This document shows positions 1,874-20,199 of a DNA stretch of 64,000 bases, piece by piece. Each line of letters starts with the position of its first letter. Position 1 is the stretch's first letter. Under the pieces are notes generated by a model, which did no database searches, was not told where the DNA came from, and was given only the letters and a program-made list of their open reading frames with translations. The position numbers were made by a program, and so were the translations under genes. The DNA lies in the sequence record PV287714.1; one strand, 5' to 3'. The stretch is from Escherichia phage HMD-9.

Positions 1874-1888
1874 TCTTTGACGATTTAA

Positions 1889-1917
1889 GGGACCTTCGGG
1901 TCCCTTTAGTTGTTTTT
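1889..1917 (+). terminator. rho-independent terminator after gene 23
   Basis: GGGACC-TTCG-GGTCCC hairpin followed by T-rich tract. Confidence 0.6.
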
Positions 1918-1921
1918 ATGG

Positions 1922-1929
1922 TATAAATA
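1922..1929 (+). promoter_or_regulatory. late promoter for gene 24
   Basis: TATAAATA about 28 nt upstream of gene 24 ATG, SD AAAGGAAAG. Confidence 0.55.
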
Positions 1930-1956
1930 AATCATATAAACTGAAAGGAAAGCGCA

Positions 1957-3240
1957 ATGGCTAAAATCAACGAACTTTTGCGCGAATCAACCACAACGAA
2001 TAGCAACTCAATCGGTCGCCCAAATCTCGTTGCTTTGACTCGCGCTACCACTAAATTAATATATTCTGACATTGTAGCAACGCAAAGAACTAATCAACCT
2101 GTTGCTGCTTTTTATGGTATCAAATACCTTAACCCAGATAATGAATTTACATTTAAAACTGGTGCTACTTACGCTGGCGAAGCTGGGTACGTAGATCGAG
2201 AACAAATCACAGAATTAACAGAAGAGTCTAAATTAACTCTCAATAAAGGCGATTTATTCAAATATAATAATATCGTTTATAAAGTATTAGAAGATACACC
2301 ATTTGCTACCATTGAAGAAAGCGATTTAGAATTAGCTCTTCAGATTGCAATTGTTCTTTTAAAGGTTCGTCTATTTTCTGATGCTGCAGTAACAAGCAAA
2401 TTTGAAAACTCTGATAGCGAAATTGCGGATGCTAGATTCCAGATTAATAAATGGCAAACCGCAGTTAAATCTCGTAAACTTAAAACTGGCATTACGGTTG
2501 AATTAGCACAAGATTTAGAAGCAAATGGATTCGATGCTCCTAATTTCTTAGAAGATTTGCTTGCAACTGAAATGGCGGATGAAATCAATAAAGATATTCT
2601 GCAGTCTTTGATTACAGTGTCAAAACGCTATAAAGTTACAGGAATTACTGATACTGGATTCATCGATTTGAGTTATGCATCTGCTCCTGAAGCTGGTCGT
2701 TCATTATACCGAATGGTATGTGAAATGGTTTCGCATATCCAAAAAGAATCAACTTATACAGCAACGTTCTGTGTTGCTTCTGCTCGTGCCGCTGCGATTC
2801 TTGCTGCATCAGGTTGGTTAAAACATAAACCAGAAGATGACAAATATCTTTCACAAAATGCCTACGGGTTATTAGCTAATGGTTTACCGCTTTATTGCGA
2901 TACCAACAGCCCATTAGATTATGTAATCGTTGGCGTAGTAGAAAATATCGGTGAAAAAGAAATTGTTGGATCAATTTTCTATGCTCCGTATACAGAAGGT
3001 CTTGACTTAGATGACCCTGAACATGTAGGTGCATTTAAAGTTGTAGTTGATCCAGAAAGCTTACAACCATCTATCGGTTTATTGGTTAGATATGCTTTAT
3101 CTGCAAATCCTTACACTGTAGCAAAAGATGAAAAAGAAGCAAGAGTAATTGATGGTGGAGACATGGATAAAATGGCGGGTCGTTCAGATTTGTCTGTTTT
3201 ATTAGGTGTTAAACTACCAAAAATTATCGTTGATGAATAA
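1957..3240 (+). CDS. 24: head vertex protein gp24
   Basis: 427 aa, gp23 paralogue, position after 23. Confidence 0.95.
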   Translation: MAKINELLRESTTTNSNSIGRPNLVALTRATTKLIYSDIVATQRTNQPVAAFYGIKYLNPDNEFTFKTGATYAGEAGYVDREQITELTEESKLTLNKGDLFKYNNIVYKVLEDTPFATIEESDLELALQIAIVLLKVRLFSDAAVTSKFENSDSEIADARFQINKWQTAVKSRKLKTGITVELAQDLEANGFDAPNFLEDLLATEMADEINKDILQSLITVSKRYKVTGITDTGFIDLSYASAPEAGRSLYRMVCEMVSHIQKESTYTATFCVASARAAAILAASGWLKHKPEDDKYLSQNAYGLLANGLPLYCDTNSPLDYVIVGVVENIGEKEIVGSIFYAPYTEGLDLDDPEHVGAFKVVVDPESLQPSIGLLVRYALSANPYTVAKDEKEARVIDGGDMDKMAGRSDLSVLLGVKLPKIIVDE

Positions 3241-3245
3241 AACAA

Positions 3246-3263
3246 AGGGACCAAAAGGTCCCT
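3246..3263. terminator. bidirectional terminator hairpin between 24 (+) and rnlB (-)
   Basis: AGGGACC-AAAA-GGTCCCT flanked by A-run and T-run. Confidence 0.55.
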
Positions 3264-3269
3264 TTTTAT

Positions 3270-4274
3270 TTAACTTACCAATTCAATCCAAGTCGGACGA
3301 AGTACATCTTGTACCATTTTAACTAATTCCTTTTTAATCAAAGAAGGATTATCCGCTTGAGTTAGAGTAATACCTTCACGAGAAGTTTCTTCCAAAATAT
3401 CTTGAACAGTTAGCCCCATCACCTTTCCAAAATCTTTTGGACCAATTTCGCCAATTTTAGAAATAACATTATTTACTCGGTTCAGTGTAACGTAGCAAGC
3501 TAAAATTCCCAGCAATTTATTATCAGCTTCTGACAACTCAACTTTAGCTTTAATAGGCTTATCAGACTTTTTCTTTTCGCTAAATTTAGAGTTCTTGCAT
3601 TTAATAGCGACACGATTGCCATTAGGCATCCAAGAAGGATAACAAGGTTTCAATACATATCCTTCAGCAGTAAATACTTCGCCTTTTGCTTCGGCATTCC
3701 AAACGCATTTATTTGCATCAACTAATCCAGCATGGTCTACTGTAAAATTATAATCCTGGACGACAGAATCTAAATCATTTGGCAATTTAATAAGTTCTTC
3801 AAATTTACCGCGACCTAAAAGTGGAGCCATTTTAAATTTAAATGTATTACAGAATGATTCCATCATATAATCATCGACATAAGTCACATCACCACTTTCC
3901 GTAGTAACAATAATGTCAAATACATAAAAATCTTTATCGCCATAATCGACATTCTTCTGAATGCCAGGTCCAGCGAATTCGCCAAAAACTTGATAAGATA
4001 CAACTGCTGAAGTTTCCATAATATCTTGCACTGCTTTAATGGAATCAGCGTAATTCTTTAAAATAATTTCATACCCAAAGAAATCTTCAGCAGGAAGAAT
4101 CGGTCCAGTACGTTTAGCACAAGTTGCTTTATCGCGTTCAATAATCAGTGAGAAATTTGTGCCATGAATCTTTTCACGAGCTACCCATTCGCCGCCAGTC
4201 AATCCTAAACTGTAAAGTTTTTCAATGAATTTAGAATTGTAATGATTTTCAAGACTGCTATACTTTTTAAACAT
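3270..4274 (-). CDS. rnlB: RNA ligase 2
   Basis: 334 aa; nucleotidyltransferase lysine motif KIHGTN; T4 position after 24. Confidence 0.93.
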
Positions 4275-4283
4275 AATTAATCC

Positions 4284-4562
4284 TCAAAATGTAATTTCTA
4301 ACCAATCACCATCACGCTGATCACTATTGACTTTAAAGCTAAATCCTTCTTTTCTCAGCCAATCACCAATTTCTTCAGTAATCAATTTATCGCGAGCGAT
4401 ACAATAATAACTAAAATATGTTTTACCTTGTTCAGCTGCTTTATTGGCAAGTTCCGAAAAATCTTTAATAAAACACTCTAGCTTAAACTGTTTACTTTTT
4501 AATGCTTTTTCGCGTAGTTGATTAGCAAAAGATTCATTTTCATAAAGATCATACTGTTCCAT
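4284..4562 (-). CDS. hypothetical protein (T4 24.2 position)
   Basis: 92 aa ORF, tightly packed in operon. Confidence 0.7.
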   Translation of the reverse strand: MEQYDLYENESFANQLREKALKSKQFKLECFIKDFSELANKAAEQGKTYFSYYCIARDKLITEEIGDWLRKEGFSFKVNSDQRDGDWLEITF

Positions 4563-4758
4563 TTTTCACCTTTTTATTGATATGTCTTTTTCTATAGACA
4601 ACTTTTTCTCGAGTTTCAAATTTATTCTTAGCAGTCATAGCTCGAGCCCATAATACAGCCACTTCTTTTGCCTGTAAGTTTAATTCACGAGCAATTTCAA
4701 TGAATGACTTTCCAGACTCATGAAGAGTAAACACCACAACCTCAGTTCTCATAATCAA
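4549..4758 (-). CDS. hypothetical small protein with helix-turn-helix-like segment (T4 24.3 position)
   Basis: 69 aa; SGKSFIEIARELNLQAKEVAVLWARA resembles HTH. Confidence 0.65.
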   Translation of the reverse strand: MIMRTEVVVFTLHESGKSFIEIARELNLQAKEVAVLWARAMTAKNKFETREKVVYRKRHINKKVKNGTV

Positions 4759-4832
4759 TCCCGTATTATTTGGTTTGTGCCATTATATACATCAATCTCA
4801 AGATGTGTTTTGTATGCTTTAAAACGAAGAAA

Positions 4833-4848
4833 GGGGCCGAAGCCCCTT
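4833..4848 (-). terminator. stem-loop/terminator downstream of hoc
   Basis: AGGGGC-CGAA-GCCCCT GNRA-loop hairpin immediately after hoc stop. Confidence 0.45.
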
Positions 4849-4852
4849 ACGA

Positions 4853-5983
4853 TTATGGATAAGTATAGATGATACCAGTTTCTAAAGCAGTTTTATGAAT
4901 GATGTATCCATTACGTGATTCTTGAACATCAACTTCTGGATAATCTTGAATCATCTTCTGAAGAGTGTAACGATGCAGGTAATATTTACTATCTGGGTCG
5001 TCAGTTTTCCAATCTTTACCTTCTTCGGTCATTTTTTGGATTTCATCCATAACCCACCAACCGCACCAGATGTAAGCTGAAGTACGATGTGGAAGAGGAT
5101 GAACATAAGGTAATTCACCTTCTGGTTCTGGAGCAACTTTATCAGTTACCTGAACTTGACCTGTTGCTGTAATAGTTTTGCTATCATAATCAGCAGCAGT
5201 AACAGTTGCAGTAACTTCAATAGTTTGACTTCCAACAGATGAAGTATCAACTGTATATACATTAGTTGACTCTTCTACAGTAGAAGAATCTTTCTTCCAC
5301 GAGTAAGTAATTTGTGCTTCTTCTGGAGCATCAGTAACATTAGCAGTAAATGTAGCCGAAGCATCTTGTTGAACGTTAATAGAAGGAGGAGTCAATGTAA
5401 CCTGTGGATTCATTGTCTTCTTATTAACCGTTAATGACACTTCATTAGAAGTAACGCTTAGTGCATCATAATCTGTCGCGGTTACTTGAGCTACACACTT
5501 GATTTTTTTAACTCCGCTTGTGGTAGGAGTGTAATTGAATGTAGCGCTAGTTGCTTCGTCCACAGGAGAATCATCTACATACCACTGATACGTAGCAGAT
5601 GCTCCATCAGGTTGAGAAGCTAAGGCAGCAGTAAATTGAACTGGGGTTCCGATTACTCCAGCGTCAGGGTTATCAGGAGTTACAGCCAATGTAGTTGACT
5701 GAGTTTTATTTTTAACTGTGATAGTTGTTGTCGCTTCAGCCGTTTCCGGGCCTCCTTCAGAAAGTGTATTTGTTGCAACAACTTTAATTGTTTTTGTTCC
5801 AGCAGGTCCTTTTAGTACATAACTAAAAGTTGCTTCAGCCCCATCTTGTAGAACATCATCTACGCTCCAAGCATATGTAATAGTTCCACCTTCAGTTTGA
5901 CCACTGGGTGCAGCAGTAAACTGCTCGGTTTCATCAATAACCCCCGTTGGTGTTTTAGGAGTTATATCAACTGTAAAAGTCAT
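4853..5983 (-). CDS. hoc: head outer capsid protein Hoc (Ig-like domains)
   Basis: 376 aa, Thr/Ser-rich tandem Ig-like segments, T4 Hoc size and position. Confidence 0.92.
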   Translation of the reverse strand: MTFTVDITPKTPTGVIDETEQFTAAPSGQTEGGTITYAWSVDDVLQDGAEATFSYVLKGPAGTKTIKVVATNTLSEGGPETAEATTTITVKNKTQSTTLAVTPDNPDAGVIGTPVQFTAALASQPDGASATYQWYVDDSPVDEATSATFNYTPTTSGVKKIKCVAQVTATDYDALSVTSNEVSLTVNKKTMNPQVTLTPPSINVQQDASATFTANVTDAPEEAQITYSWKKDSSTVEESTNVYTVDTSSVGSQTIEVTATVTAADYDSKTITATGQVQVTDKVAPEPEGELPYVHPLPHRTSAYIWCGWWVMDEIQKMTEEGKDWKTDDPDSKYYLHRYTLQKMIQDYPEVDVQESRNGYIIHKTALETGIIYTYP

Positions 5984-16414: not shown

Positions 16415-17379
16415 TGTATTCTTTAGAGGAATTTAATAATCAAGCAATAAACGCAGATTTCCAACGTAATAATATGTTTAGCTGCGTTTTTGCGACAACT
16501 CCATCAACTAAAAGCTCTTCGTTGATAAGTTCAATTAGCAACTTTTCTTATAATAACTTGGGCCTAAATTCAAATTGGTTAGGATTAACTCAAGGTGATA
16601 TTAATCAGGGAATTACCACGCTAATTACAGCTGGCACACAAAAACTAATAAGAAAATCAGGAGTCAGTAAATATCTTATTGGTGCCATGAGTCAACGTAC
16701 TGTCCAGAGTTTATTAGGCTCATTTACGGTTGGTACATATTTAATTGACTTCTTTAACATGGCATATAACTCATCTGGATTGATGATATATTCTGTAAAA
16801 ATGCCAGAGAATAGATTATCCTATGAAACTGACTGGAACTATAATTCTCCTAATATTCGTATAACTGGGAGAGAATTAGACCCTTTGGTTATTTCATTTA
16901 GAATGGATTCAGAAGCTTGTAACTATCGTGCAATGCAAGACTGGGTTAACTCCGTTCAAGACCCAGTAACTGGATTACGTGCTTTGCCACAAGATGTCGA
17001 GGCAGATATTCAGGTTAATCTTCATTCTCGCAATGGATTGCCTCATACTGCGGTGATGTTCACCGGATGCATTCCAATATCAGTGAGCGCTCCTGAGCTA
17101 TCATATGATGGAGATAACCAAATAACTACATTTGATGTTACTTTTGCGTACAGAGTGATGCAGGCTGGAGCAGTTGATAGGCAAGCTGCGCTTGAATGGC
17201 TTGAATCTGCTGCTATAAATGGTATTCAAAGCGTTCTCGGAAATAGTGGAGGTGTTACTGGACTATCTAATTCGCTTTCACGACTTAGTAGATTAGGAGG
17301 AACTGCGGGAAGCATTTCAAACATTAATACTATGACGGGAATTGTCAACTCGCAAAGTAAAATATTAGGAGCAATATAA
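16414..17379 (+). CDS. 54: baseplate tail tube initiator gp54
   Basis: 321 aa, position. Confidence 0.9.
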   Translation: MYSLEEFNNQAINADFQRNNMFSCVFATTPSTKSSSLISSISNFSYNNLGLNSNWLGLTQGDINQGITTLITAGTQKLIRKSGVSKYLIGAMSQRTVQSLLGSFTVGTYLIDFFNMAYNSSGLMIYSVKMPENRLSYETDWNYNSPNIRITGRELDPLVISFRMDSEACNYRAMQDWVNSVQDPVTGLRALPQDVEADIQVNLHSRNGLPHTAVMFTGCIPISVSAPELSYDGDNQITTFDVTFAYRVMQAGAVDRQAALEWLESAAINGIQSVLGNSGGVTGLSNSLSRLSRLGGTAGSISNINTMTGIVNSQSKILGAI

Positions 17380-17383
17380 CAAT

Positions 17384-17401
17384 GGGGACCTTTCGGTCCC
17401 C
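17384..17401. terminator. bidirectional terminator between 54 (+) and minus-strand alt region
   Basis: GGGGACC-TTTC-GGTCCCC followed by T-run. Confidence 0.55.
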
Positions 17402-17407
17402 ATATTT

Positions 17408-17698
17408 TTATTTACGGAATGAAATAAAAGCAGCAACTGAAGCAACTAAACTGTCTTCAATATAAACTTCAATTTTTACCGGAGCTTCTGACTCAAATTT
17501 ACCTGTTACTACACCTTGGAAAATACTTTCAGTCTGTTCTGGCTTTGAAAAATTTTCAGAAGGAAAAATTCCGAACTTTTTATCTGTTCCAAAAATTTTG
17601 ATAAATTCATCATAAACTGCTTCATTAAAAGCATTATCAGCAGGAATAACGCCTTCAACTACAAGTTCTTGACCTAAAAAGCGCAAAGAAGATTTCAT
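17408..17698 (-). CDS. hypothetical protein (T4 alt.-3 position)
   Basis: 96 aa ORF downstream of alt. Confidence 0.7.
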   Translation of the reverse strand: MKSSLRFLGQELVVEGVIPADNAFNEAVYDEFIKIFGTDKKFGIFPSENFSKPEQTESIFQGVVTGKFESEAPVKIEVYIEDSLVASVAAFISFRK

Positions 17699-17705
17699 TT
17701 TGTGT

Positions 17706-17760
17706 TCCTCATGTTATGTCAGTAAGATTACTATAACACAACATGAGGGACTTGTAAACT
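17706..17760 (-). promoter_or_regulatory. early-type promoter plus leader inverted repeat (copy 1 of repeated cassette)
   Basis: Minus strand GTTTACA..TATAGTAAT; inverted repeat CCCTCATGTTGTG/CATAACATGAGG spans SD; near-identical copy at 31232-31290. Confidence 0.45.
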
Positions 17761-17934
17761 ACATTTTGAACTTTTTAGTACGCGTAATAGGCATGCGTCG
17801 ATTTTATACTGTTTCATTGTTTGAAGAGCAGTATCAAAAACAGCATTAATGACACCAATTGGATTTCCACCCATGTTTTTAAGCTTAACTAATGATAGTT
17901 TCTCATTAACACCTATCATTACGATATGCATCAT
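17731..17934 (-). CDS. Alt N-terminal paralogue, distal half (T4 alt.-2-like)
   Basis: MMHIV..MKQYKIDACLLRVLKS aligns to Alt residues ~64-125. Confidence 0.7.
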   Translation of the reverse strand: MMHIVMIGVNEKLSLVKLKNMGGNPIGVINAVFDTALQTMKQYKIDACLLRVLKSSKCSLQVPHVVL

Positions 17935-18116
17935 TTTATCGCCCGGCTTAACGTTTTATTCGTATCACCGCCAGAGGTGTATGTACAAAATCTAAATCCA
18001 GGAAGCACACTTTCTTCACCGGCTTGAATAGCAAAAATTTGAGGTATTTTATGCTTAGGATTTAAGTTAACAACCGGCGCCGAAGCGCCGTCAAATAATT
18101 CTGTAATAAGTTCCAT
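17931..18116 (-). CDS. Alt N-terminal paralogue, proximal half (T4 alt.-1-like)
   Basis: MELITELFD..PGFRFCTYTSGGDTN aligns to Alt residues 1-55; out of frame with the next ORF. Confidence 0.7.
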   Translation of the reverse strand: MELITELFDGASAPVVNLNPKHKIPQIFAIQAGEESVLPGFRFCTYTSGGDTNKTLSRAIK

Positions 18117-18119
18117 GAT

Positions 18120-20171
18120 TTATCCTTGAACAAACTTGTAAGGCATGTTTGCAATATCTATGCAAGACGCAATAATTCCAAGAGATGATTCTGCTTTCTG
18201 TTTAACATTTGATGAAACAAACGATGCAAAGTCAACTCTATCTTCTATATCACCTGTCATTGTAACCAATTCACCAGTTTCCATTAAACGGTCACCGTCA
18301 TAAATTACCGATTCGGTGAGTTCTTCTGTGGTCATAACTTCAGCTTGAATAAGCTTGTTGTTAGTTCTAATTGTTCCATCGTTGTAAGATGCATCAGTTA
18401 TTTTATTAACTTTGACCATTAATCCACGTGGCAAAATGACTTCCATTTCATTTGAAGGCGCTAAACTTCCACCGGGTAAAACAACATTGACCTTATCAGC
18501 CCCAGTAATAACCCATCCAATTCCAACTAAATTATCGCTAGAATTTACAAGTCCTTCATCAGTTTTATCAATAGAAACACTTAAACGCTTTTCGTCTGGT
18601 AAAACACCCACAGATGAATCAGTCATCCAAGTACCAAAAATATTTGGATATAATGATGTTGACACAAAGTTTCTAAAATAAAAAACTCGATTTTTTACCA
18701 TTGCTTCGTATATTGAAGGTAACATTCGTTGTGAACGATACAAAGTAATACCTTTTGGTAATCGTTCACCATTTTTAAAGGCTGAATCTAAATTATCAAT
18801 GGCTTGTTCTATTTCAGGTGCTGTTAAAATACTTGTACGCTCATCTGGATTATATAATCCCAAAAGAGCATTATTCATGTCTACATATCCTGAACCTACA
18901 TATTCACGAATTCCGCGTTTTTGCGCTGGTGTGTATTTAGATGAATCTTTATTTTCGACTATAGGATGTAATGACCATCCAGCGGTAAGAGCATATCCAC
19001 GTAATTCTCTTCGAATAATCTTTGTTTTTATTGCATTCCAAGAATTTTGTACTAACTCATTTGCAGCATCTTGGTTTAAATGCGAATGTCTGTTAATATT
19101 TCTTTCAAACCAAGCACCTTTATATTTTTCTAAAGTATCATCGACGATAGAAGCAATAGTTTCTAAAGTTTTTATTGAAGTAATAGATTCTTTTCGTAAT
19201 TTTTCTAAAGCTTTATTTTTTATTTCTGCATTAATAATGGATTCTTTATCTTCAGGAATTATAGAAGCTTCTCTGAATGCCATCCCAGCTGTAACACTGC
19301 TAAGAGCATTCTCTAATGCAAATCCTGAAGTAGAAATAACAGTTAATTCGTTAGCATCAGAAATTAAAGGCGCGTCGGCGGGTTTATTTAATTCTGCTGC
19401 TGAAGCCTCAAATTTTTGAAACATTGGTGTTTCAAATCTAGAAGATTCCAATGACTGACTTTGTGCAATTGCTCTACGGGAAATTTTAACTTTAACAATA
19501 ACAGCTTGGTCAGAACGCTTATCATTTTCTTGCGCAATAGATGCAGCAATTGCCTCATTTTTAGTTACTTGAGCTCCAGTATCTTTATTGATATAAACAT
19601 CACCGACCTTCGATTCAACTTTAGTAAAGAGCTCGGTGCTAATTTCCGGAACTCCTGGAATGTCTTCTAGTGATACATTTTTGCGATGTATAAGAATATA
19701 TGCATACTTTTTATCGTAATCCCAGAGTTCCTTAAGAAGGACGTATCTGCCGCCTGAACGACTGCGGATAAGTCTATCAGCAATAACTTGAATTTGTCGA
19801 GCTTGACCAGCAGTTTTAGACTTAAGAATACGAAGCATGCAGGCATCAATTTTATACTGACGCATCGTTTGCATCGCAACAGTAAAAACTGAATTGATGT
19901 AATTAATTGGGCTTGGACCGAGACCTTTTAATTTAGCAATTGAACCTTTAGCAGTTAATGTAAAAGGAACGATGTGCATCATTTTATCGCCCATCTTTAA
20001 ATCACGGTTAGTATCACCTCCAGATGTATAAGTACATAAACGAAAGCCTGGTTGTTCTATTGCGTCATCAACATGAACTGAAAAAATTTGTGGTATTTTC
20101 TTCTTTGGATACAAATTTGTAATCGGAAGAGTAGTATTTTCGTCAAATAATTCTGTAATAAGTTCCATCAT
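18120..20171 (-). CDS. alt: RNA polymerase ADP-ribosyltransferase Alt
   Basis: 683 aa; T4 Alt size and N-terminal sequence. Confidence 0.93.
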   Translation of the reverse strand: MMELITELFDENTTLPITNLYPKKKIPQIFSVHVDDAIEQPGFRLCTYTSGGDTNRDLKMGDKMMHIVPFTLTAKGSIAKLKGLGPSPINYINSVFTVAMQTMRQYKIDACMLRILKSKTAGQARQIQVIADRLIRSRSGGRYVLLKELWDYDKKYAYILIHRKNVSLEDIPGVPEISTELFTKVESKVGDVYINKDTGAQVTKNEAIAASIAQENDKRSDQAVIVKVKISRRAIAQSQSLESSRFETPMFQKFEASAAELNKPADAPLISDANELTVISTSGFALENALSSVTAGMAFREASIIPEDKESIINAEIKNKALEKLRKESITSIKTLETIASIVDDTLEKYKGAWFERNINRHSHLNQDAANELVQNSWNAIKTKIIRRELRGYALTAGWSLHPIVENKDSSKYTPAQKRGIREYVGSGYVDMNNALLGLYNPDERTSILTAPEIEQAIDNLDSAFKNGERLPKGITLYRSQRMLPSIYEAMVKNRVFYFRNFVSTSLYPNIFGTWMTDSSVGVLPDEKRLSVSIDKTDEGLVNSSDNLVGIGWVITGADKVNVVLPGGSLAPSNEMEVILPRGLMVKVNKITDASYNDGTIRTNNKLIQAEVMTTEELTESVIYDGDRLMETGELVTMTGDIEDRVDFASFVSSNVKQKAESSLGIIASCIDIANMPYKFVQG

Positions 20172-20191: not shown

Positions 20192-20199
20192 TATTTATA
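20192..20199 (-). promoter_or_regulatory. late promoter upstream of alt
   Basis: Minus-strand TATAAATA about 20 nt upstream of alt ATG. Confidence 0.45.

Follow-up and report, generated by a model that had tools for sequence, protein, structure and literature searches.

The sequence at positions 17731–18116 (minus strand) of Escherichia phage HMD-9 (record PV287714.1) is very probably the stump that remains of the 5′ part of a second alt-like ADP-ribosyltransferase gene, originally full-length and now a transcribed pseudogene remnant that is decaying neutrally. The two short open reading frames that it carries, alt.-1 and alt.-2, appear to have no protein function, and the only functional part of the interval is likely to be its last ~50 nt, which overlap the putative promoter of the neighboring gene alt.-3. 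When compared with a functional homolog, the remnant displays two disabling lesions, a 1699-nt deletion and a 1-nt frameshift. All positions refer to the window, i.e. the 64,000 nt stretch of HMD-9 DNA that was analyzed.

The alt region of HMD-9

A 2.85-kb region that includes the remnant shares 99.8% identity with Escherichia phage Pu-Krd-SF4 and ~97% with phage T4. On the strength of this sequence identity, the window is assigned to Tequatrovirus and the two short open reading frames are identified as the T4 alt.-1 and alt.-2. The order of genes also matches that of T4 and T4T: alt.-1 and alt.-2 are flanked by alt and alt.-3, all on the same strand, with gene 54 upstream and gene 30 (DNA ligase) downstream.

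The alt gene, which encodes the full-length Alt ADP-ribosyltransferase, is found at 18120–20168 (minus strand). This gives 682 aa when the second ATG is taken as the start, as in the T4 annotation; the ORF-finder list shows 18120–20171 (minus strand), a start one codon earlier. The window alt is ~97% identical to T4 alt, and its product contains the Pfam domain PF03496 (ADPrib_exo_Tox) at residues 375–615, with an E-value = 2.4e-33. At the 5′ side of alt, a pattern match places the T4 late-promoter motif TATAAATA at 20192–20199 (minus strand); the late-promoter consensus is well established in T4.

The alt.-1 open reading frame (17931–18116, minus strand) consists of 61 aa, begins with MELITELFDGASAP and ends with GGDTNKTLSRAIK. 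A Shine-Dalgarno sequence AAGGA, that of the former second alt copy, is found at 18123–18127 (minus strand), 6 nt upstream of the alt.-1 ATG, and overlaps the end of alt. The alt.-2 open reading frame (17731–17934, minus strand) consists of 67 aa and extends from MMHIVMIGVNEK to LLRVLKSSKCSLQVPHVVL. Both are annotated under these names in T4 and T4T. The sequence and the coordinates of the two open reading frames show that the stop codon of alt.-1 (TGA) and the start codon of alt.-2 (ATG) overlap as ATGA at 17931–17934 (minus strand). Open reading frames of 33–49 aa are also present on the plus strand of the interval, but these were rejected as by-products of the AT-rich sequence; they are annotated in no related record.

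The downstream neighbor, alt.-3 (17408–17698, minus strand), is intact and encodes a 96 aa protein of the DUF5498 family (Pfam PF17602, E-value = 1.4e-64). Between gene 54 and alt.-3, at 17382–17403 (either strand), there is an intrinsic-terminator hairpin with a perfect 9-bp GC-rich stem, ATGGGGACC-TTTC-GGTCCCCAT, and a T-run on the plus strand; a terminator is annotated here in phages fPS-2 and e11/2. The hairpin is probably a bidirectional terminator shared by the convergent genes 54 and alt.-3, and it terminates the transcription unit that consists of alt, alt.-1, alt.-2, and alt.-3.

The locus is real, correctly placed, and already known and annotated. In the T4 reference, alt.-1 and alt.-2 are described as a duplicate of the initial portion of alt that has acquired a stop codon, and the T4T record notes ‘a deletion and further frame shift in the second copy of gene alt’. 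The fPS-2 record carries the label ‘similar to N-terminal of ... Alt; putative pseudogene’. The two open reading frames were also listed as paralogous duplications of alt in a 2006 comparative paper (PMC1524935). Several records name the remnant open reading frames ‘ADP-ribosyltransferase’, although these carry no domain.

Similarity to the Alt N-terminal sequence

Both remnant open reading frames contain Alt-type N-terminal sequence. Positions 1–53 of Alt.-1 and positions 1–54 of Alt share 34 identical residues, and positions 1–55 of Alt.-2 share 33 with positions 63–117 of Alt. At the nt level, the remnant and the 5′ end of alt are 72.9% identical over 210 nt (E-value = 3e-28), which is far above chance. 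Alt.-1 and Alt.-2 end in tails, of 8 and 12 residues respectively, that are non-homologous or out of frame. The pairwise alignment of the remnant with alt shows one 1-nt gap, located immediately 3′ of GGTGATACGAA. A Pfam search with Alt.-1, Alt.-2, and the fused 128 aa open reading frame gave zero matches, and the ART catalytic domain is absent from them.

The initial annotation had proposed that two short open reading frames directly downstream of alt re-encode the Alt N-terminus and that a 1-nt difference after GGDTN splits the copy. The alignments agree with both points, the first with exact coordinates. The proposed extent, Alt residues ~1–125, holds as far as the N-terminal homology is concerned, but this ends at ~117 and not at 125. 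A tandem duplication of the Alt N-terminus alone, as was also assumed, does not fit, as the ancestor is a full-length 685 aa paralog, which the majority of Tequatrovirus genomes still carry in complete form.

The intact second alt gene and the two lesions

An intact second alt gene of 685 aa is found between alt and alt.-3 in locus L003 (at 1880–3937) and in phages RB32, EcNP1, IME339, ECO78, SHFML-11, and teqdroes. The first 347 nt of the remnant show ~95–97% identity with the 5′ end of this gene, and the AAGGA Shine-Dalgarno sequence upstream of alt.-1 is identical in the intact paralog of L003. The right comparator for the remnant is the intact second paralog and not alt itself.

Three of these records call for comment. 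L003 is PV654520.1, a 142 kb record entitled ‘Pseudomonas phage vB_PSGBLB0006’ with P. aeruginosa as host. Its locus is ~97% identical to that of T4-type coliphages, which suggests that either the host is mislabeled or a Tequatrovirus contaminant is present. In ECO78 (PP526941.1), ‘thymidylate synthase’ is given as the product of the alt gene (2852–4945), which is plainly a mistake in the annotation. The RB32 record describes the intact copy as an ‘apparent insertion in alt.-2’; the event in fact ran in the opposite direction.

Only two gaps interrupt the colinearity of the window with L003: one of 1 nt, and one of 1699 nt with the 9-nt sequence CTAAAAAGT on either side. In six of nine intact copies this sequence is found as direct repeats, at positions +340 and +2039 of the gene, and a blastn comparison with L003 shows that a lone repeat survives at the deletion junction in the window (17770–17778, minus strand). 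The upstream repeat, at +340, is missing in the other three intact copies (L018, L026, and L030); the microhomology that would have mediated the deletion is therefore itself polymorphic.

The 1699-nt deletion takes codons ~117–679 and with these the entire ADP-ribosyltransferase domain, as the PF03496 domain of the intact copy (residues 416–620) lies inside the deleted segment. The deletion also changes the reading frame, and therefore the stump continues for 12 unrelated codons, SKCSLQVPHVVL, that end at a TAG at 17731. Thus alt.-2 is composed of codons 62–116 of the second alt copy and a 12-codon out-of-frame tail that enters the alt.-3 promoter. The end point of the deletion is 11 nt upstream of the −35 hexamer of this promoter candidate.

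The other lesion is found in a run of A residues at 17954–17957 (minus strand), where the ancestral AATAAAAACG (A5) is changed to AATAAAACG (A4). The loss of 1 nt produces a frameshift, and alt.-1 is composed of codons 1–53 of the second alt copy fused to 8 frameshifted codons.

A likely course of events can be outlined. Downstream of alt, a full-length second alt-like ADP-ribosyltransferase gene would once have formed a tandem pair with it. Slippage or a microhomology mechanism would then have removed 1699 nt between the CTAAAAAGT repeats, either in a common ancestor of HMD-9 and T4 or in an allele that spread by recombination. Later, the loss of one A from the A5 run would have converted the 128-codon stump to open reading frames of 61 and 67 codons. 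The large deletion appears to have come first and the loss of the A second, because phages N2 and SYGD1 keep the A5 run together with a single 128-codon open reading frame. Recurrent deletion at the CTAAAAAGT repeats, instead of a single event, is formally conceivable.

Distribution and secondary mutations in related phages

A search with the internal part of the intact copy showed hits in 407 phage records, with 402 covering at least 80% of that part. A query spanning the deletion junction matched 495 records and was contiguous in only 90. The intact second alt is therefore the majority state (~80%), and the state found in T4 and the window is a minority allele. IMG/VR holds few T4-type contigs; the exact junction pattern was found in only two, and a protein-seeded scan gave seven loci with two intact second copies.

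Seventeen remnants were aligned, consisting of the window, 14 INPHARED records, and two IMG/VR contigs, a non-random sample selected by hand. The deletion junction is identical in all 17. The A-run is A5 in all nine intact copies, and among the remnants it is A4 in 13 and A5 in four. Seven remnants, including the window, T4, T4T, e11/2, and VEc20, display the A4 frameshift as the only further lesion and show the split into 61 and 67 codons. N2 and SYGD1 are the two remnants with A5 and the single 128-codon open reading frame. In the other eight, codon 6 is changed from GAA to TAA; six of these also have the A4 run and two (SG1 and fPS-2) have A5. An extra −1 deletion in a T-run inside alt.-2 is found in two of the six with both TAA and A4 (235Ecol030PP and CE1).

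The same junction adjoins two different alt alleles, one of 2094 nt and 697 aa (L007, L008, L012, L013, L015, L016, and L017), the other of 2049 nt and 682 aa (the window, T4, and L014). Either the deletion allele has moved between backgrounds by recombination, or alt itself is mosaic.

Substitutions in the remnant

Sequence variants were scored over the 348 nt shared by the intact copies and the remnants, with the consensus of the nine intact copies taken as the ancestor. The intact copies show 30 synonymous changes, 1 non-synonymous change, and no stop codon. Variants of the remnants that are shared with intact copies give a similar pattern (15 synonymous, 1 non-synonymous, no stop). Variants private to the remnants consist of 5 synonymous and 10 non-synonymous changes and 1 stop codon. 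The difference between the remnant-private variants and those of the intact copies is significant (Fisher p = 2.6e-6), with the provisos that there are only 16 private variants, that the ancestor is a consensus, that the sequences were chosen by hand, and that recombination with intact copies may blur the classes. The neutral expectation, with 78% of sites non-synonymous, is consistent with the remnant-private ratio (binomial p = 0.37), whereas the intact copies depart very strongly from it (p = 4e-19). Thus the 5′ region is strongly constrained when part of the whole gene and essentially unconstrained after truncation: a ratio of 30 synonymous to 1 non-synonymous change in the intact copies, against 5 synonymous to 11 non-synonymous or stop changes private to the remnants, shows that constraint was relaxed upon truncation.

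Transcription and the putative alt.-3 promoter

No terminator-like site was found on the minus strand between alt and alt.-3. Since the late-promoter motif TATAAATA is present 5′ of alt, the stump should, as judged from the sequence, share the alt transcript. In a time-resolved study of T4, the RNA of alt.-1 and alt.-2 is of the ‘middle’ class, as is that of alt, and the protein class of alt.-1 and alt.-2 is NA (PMC9697503, Tables S2 and S3). The Alt protein itself is late (PMC9697503). The remnant would ride passively on a read-through transcript that extends from alt to alt.-3, and would decay neutrally.

A sigma-70-type promoter sequence, TTTACA-17 nt-TATAGT with an extended −10 TG, is present at 17730–17758 (minus strand). 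It shows a 10/12 match, the best in the region, and its −35 hexamer is invariant across all aligned loci. This sequence is the putative early promoter of alt.-3. A separate early promoter fits the T4 data, in which both the RNA and the protein of alt.-3 are early while the RNA of alt, alt.-1, and alt.-2 is middle (PMC9697503). Alt.-3 is a DUF5498 protein whose gene has a putative strong early-type promoter to itself; in T4 it reaches intensities around 1e9 and ranks with the abundant early proteins (PMC9697503).

The position of this promoter raises the question of whether the stump is kept for a role in cis: it might serve the alt.-3 promoter as a spacer or UP-like A-rich element, or the alt mRNA as a stabilizing 3′ UTR. 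There is a strong promoter-like site whose −35 hexamer begins 11 nt beyond the end of the deletion, the A-rich junction repeat is situated at the position of an UP element, and the gene served is that of an abundant early protein in T4 (PMC9697503). In addition, all sampled deletion carriers retain the same stump of ~350 nt. However, the promoter overlaps only the last ~50 nt. The other ~300 nt display neutral-looking substitutions and indels and no significant fold, and an Rfam scan of 17300–18300 gave only two sub-threshold chance matches, both outside the remnant. A single deletion event would account just as well for the uniform length of the stump. A role in cis for the stump as a whole is therefore improbable.

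Possible protein products of the remnant

A function for Alt.-1 as a small protein, with or without Alt.-2, is very improbable. Such a protein might be packaged together with Alt or compete with it as a decoy or modulator. In alt.-1, the ATG and its Shine-Dalgarno sequence AAGGA are preserved, the reading frame is intact over the first 53 codons, and the product has the MELITE motif adjacent to the gp21 cleavage region, so that a short peptide might in principle be translated. The prohead core contains ~40 copies of the gpAlt protein, which loses a small N-terminal peptide through cleavage by gp21 (PMC9958956). Alt.-1 retains this N-terminal sequence trimmed by gp21, which may target Alt to the prohead core. 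Moreover, remnant RNA is present in T4 infection (PMC9697503), the T4-type split with both open reading frames open is preserved in the seven remnants noted above, the 128 aa open reading frame is kept in two others, and the ATGA overlap at the start of alt.-2 could permit translational coupling.

Several observations stand against a protein function. The codon-6 stop abolishes Alt.-1 in 8/17 remnants, the substitutions private to the remnants are mostly non-synonymous, and ~80% of related phages carry the full gene instead. No targeting function is mapped to this segment in the retrievable literature. In the T4 proteome, Alt.-1 (P39495) has an intensity of zero in 24/24 samples and Alt.-2 (P39494) has no row (PMC9697503); these are shotgun data on T4 and not on HMD-9, and a small protein of low abundance or stability could escape them. 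The neighboring Alt and Alt.-3 proteins are abundant in the same data, which cover up to ~85% of the proteins (PMC9697503). Good tryptic peptides are expected from Alt.-1 (MELITELFDGASAPVVNLNPK, IPQIFAIQAGEESVLPGFR, and FCTYTSGGDTNK), and its absence from the T4 data therefore carries some weight.

The specific proposal, that the 61 aa Alt.-1 is translated late and enters the prohead core or titrates the factor that recognizes the Alt N-terminus, has a very small probability; if it were true, a truncated paralog would tune the amount of Alt that is packaged. Of the two outcomes offered by the initial annotation, the packaged decoy or fragment thus finds no support, given the codon-6 stop and the failure to detect either protein in T4 (PMC9697503). 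The decaying pseudogene is the one that agrees with the data: the lesions differ by lineage, constraint is relaxed, and the protein is undetected in T4.

It is scarcely credible that a 128 aa fragment is made across the split, either by programmed −1 ribosomal frameshifting or through transcriptional slippage on the A-run. The lesion does lie in a homopolymeric A-run, a −1 shift would restore the ancestral frame, and N2 and SYGD1 encode the fused 128 aa open reading frame. However, the junction reads ACG AAT AAA ACG, which contains A4 only and no X XXY YYZ heptamer. In the −1 frame there is a TAA exactly at the site, so that it could be passed only by a mismatched P-site slip. Transcriptional slippage generally requires much longer A-runs. 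The site is also variable among related phages (AAT, GAT, or AAC, with A4 or A5), many of these have an upstream stop, and some have an additional downstream frameshift. A stimulatory RNA structure was not indicated by folding of 126 nt that span the site and lie mostly downstream of it (minimum free energy −25.1 kcal/mol against a shuffle mean of −22, z = −0.96). Frameshifting at the junction had been put forward for testing with the initial annotation; at the sequence level, with the heptamer absent, no unusual fold, and an arrangement that is not conserved, the check is negative.

That the A4 run is a homopolymer sequencing or assembly error, and that the phage truly encodes the 128 aa open reading frame, can be set aside: a 1-nt change in homopolymer length is a typical error, but A4 recurs in independent genomes (the Sanger T4 reference, T4T, several T4 resequencings, and e11/2, the last confirmed in the alignment), the RB55 and RB59 remnants agree with that of T4T in length (426 nt) and in identity, and even with A5 the 1699-nt deletion leaves a stump without a domain.

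Comparison with known alt sequences

The reading of the interval as a pseudogene remnant matters little beyond correct annotation. The pair alt.-1 and alt.-2 should be annotated as one pseudogene, not as two hypothetical proteins or as an ‘ADP-ribosyltransferase’. The locus is, in addition, a clean natural example from the T-even phages of a microhomology-mediated deletion followed by lineage-specific decay. It also shows that the model phage T4 is without a second Alt-like ADP-ribosyltransferase; in ~80% of the related phages sequenced, this gene is retained and under strong purifying selection. The role of this intact second Alt paralog is the more interesting question.

The closest known counterparts of the remnant are the T4 alt.-1 and alt.-2 (UniProt P39495, Y12C_BPT4, and P39494; AF158101 and HM137666), which occupy the same place between alt and alt.-3. 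Over 426 nt, the T4 and T4T remnants share 97.4–97.9% DNA identity with the window. T4 and the window have in common the 61- and 67-codon open reading frames, the deletion junction, the A4 frameshift, and the ATGA overlap; they differ by a few point substitutions, e.g. in the tails KTLSRAIK/KTLNQAIK, VPHVVL/VPRVVL, and NMGG/NLGG.

The intact paralog (685 aa; named ‘alt.-2’ in RB32 and RB14, and also labeled ‘Alt-like RNA polymerase ADP-ribosyltransferase’) represents the locus orthologous to the remnant. The two share the Shine-Dalgarno sequence, the start, and the downstream alt.-3 promoter. However, the intact paralog keeps codons 117–679 with the PF03496 ART domain, while the window is without these and carries the A-run frameshift as well.

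The T4 Alt protein (gpAlt) has a paralogous N-terminus with ~60–64% aa identity over residues 1–117, including the MELITELFD and GFRxCTYTSGGDTN sequences. Alt is complete, catalytically equipped, expressed, and packaged, whereas the remnant is without the catalytic domain and its protein is undetected in T4 (PMC9697503).

Tandem alt paralogs, some of them partial or split, recur in T4-like phages, e.g. RB49 ORF183c, 44RR ORF187c/188c, CDS210/211 of Acinetobacter phage ZZ1, and copies in JS98 and Bp7 (PMC1524935, PMC4177764). The alt-like copies of RB49, 44RR, ZZ1, JS98, and Bp7 are independent events in other genera.
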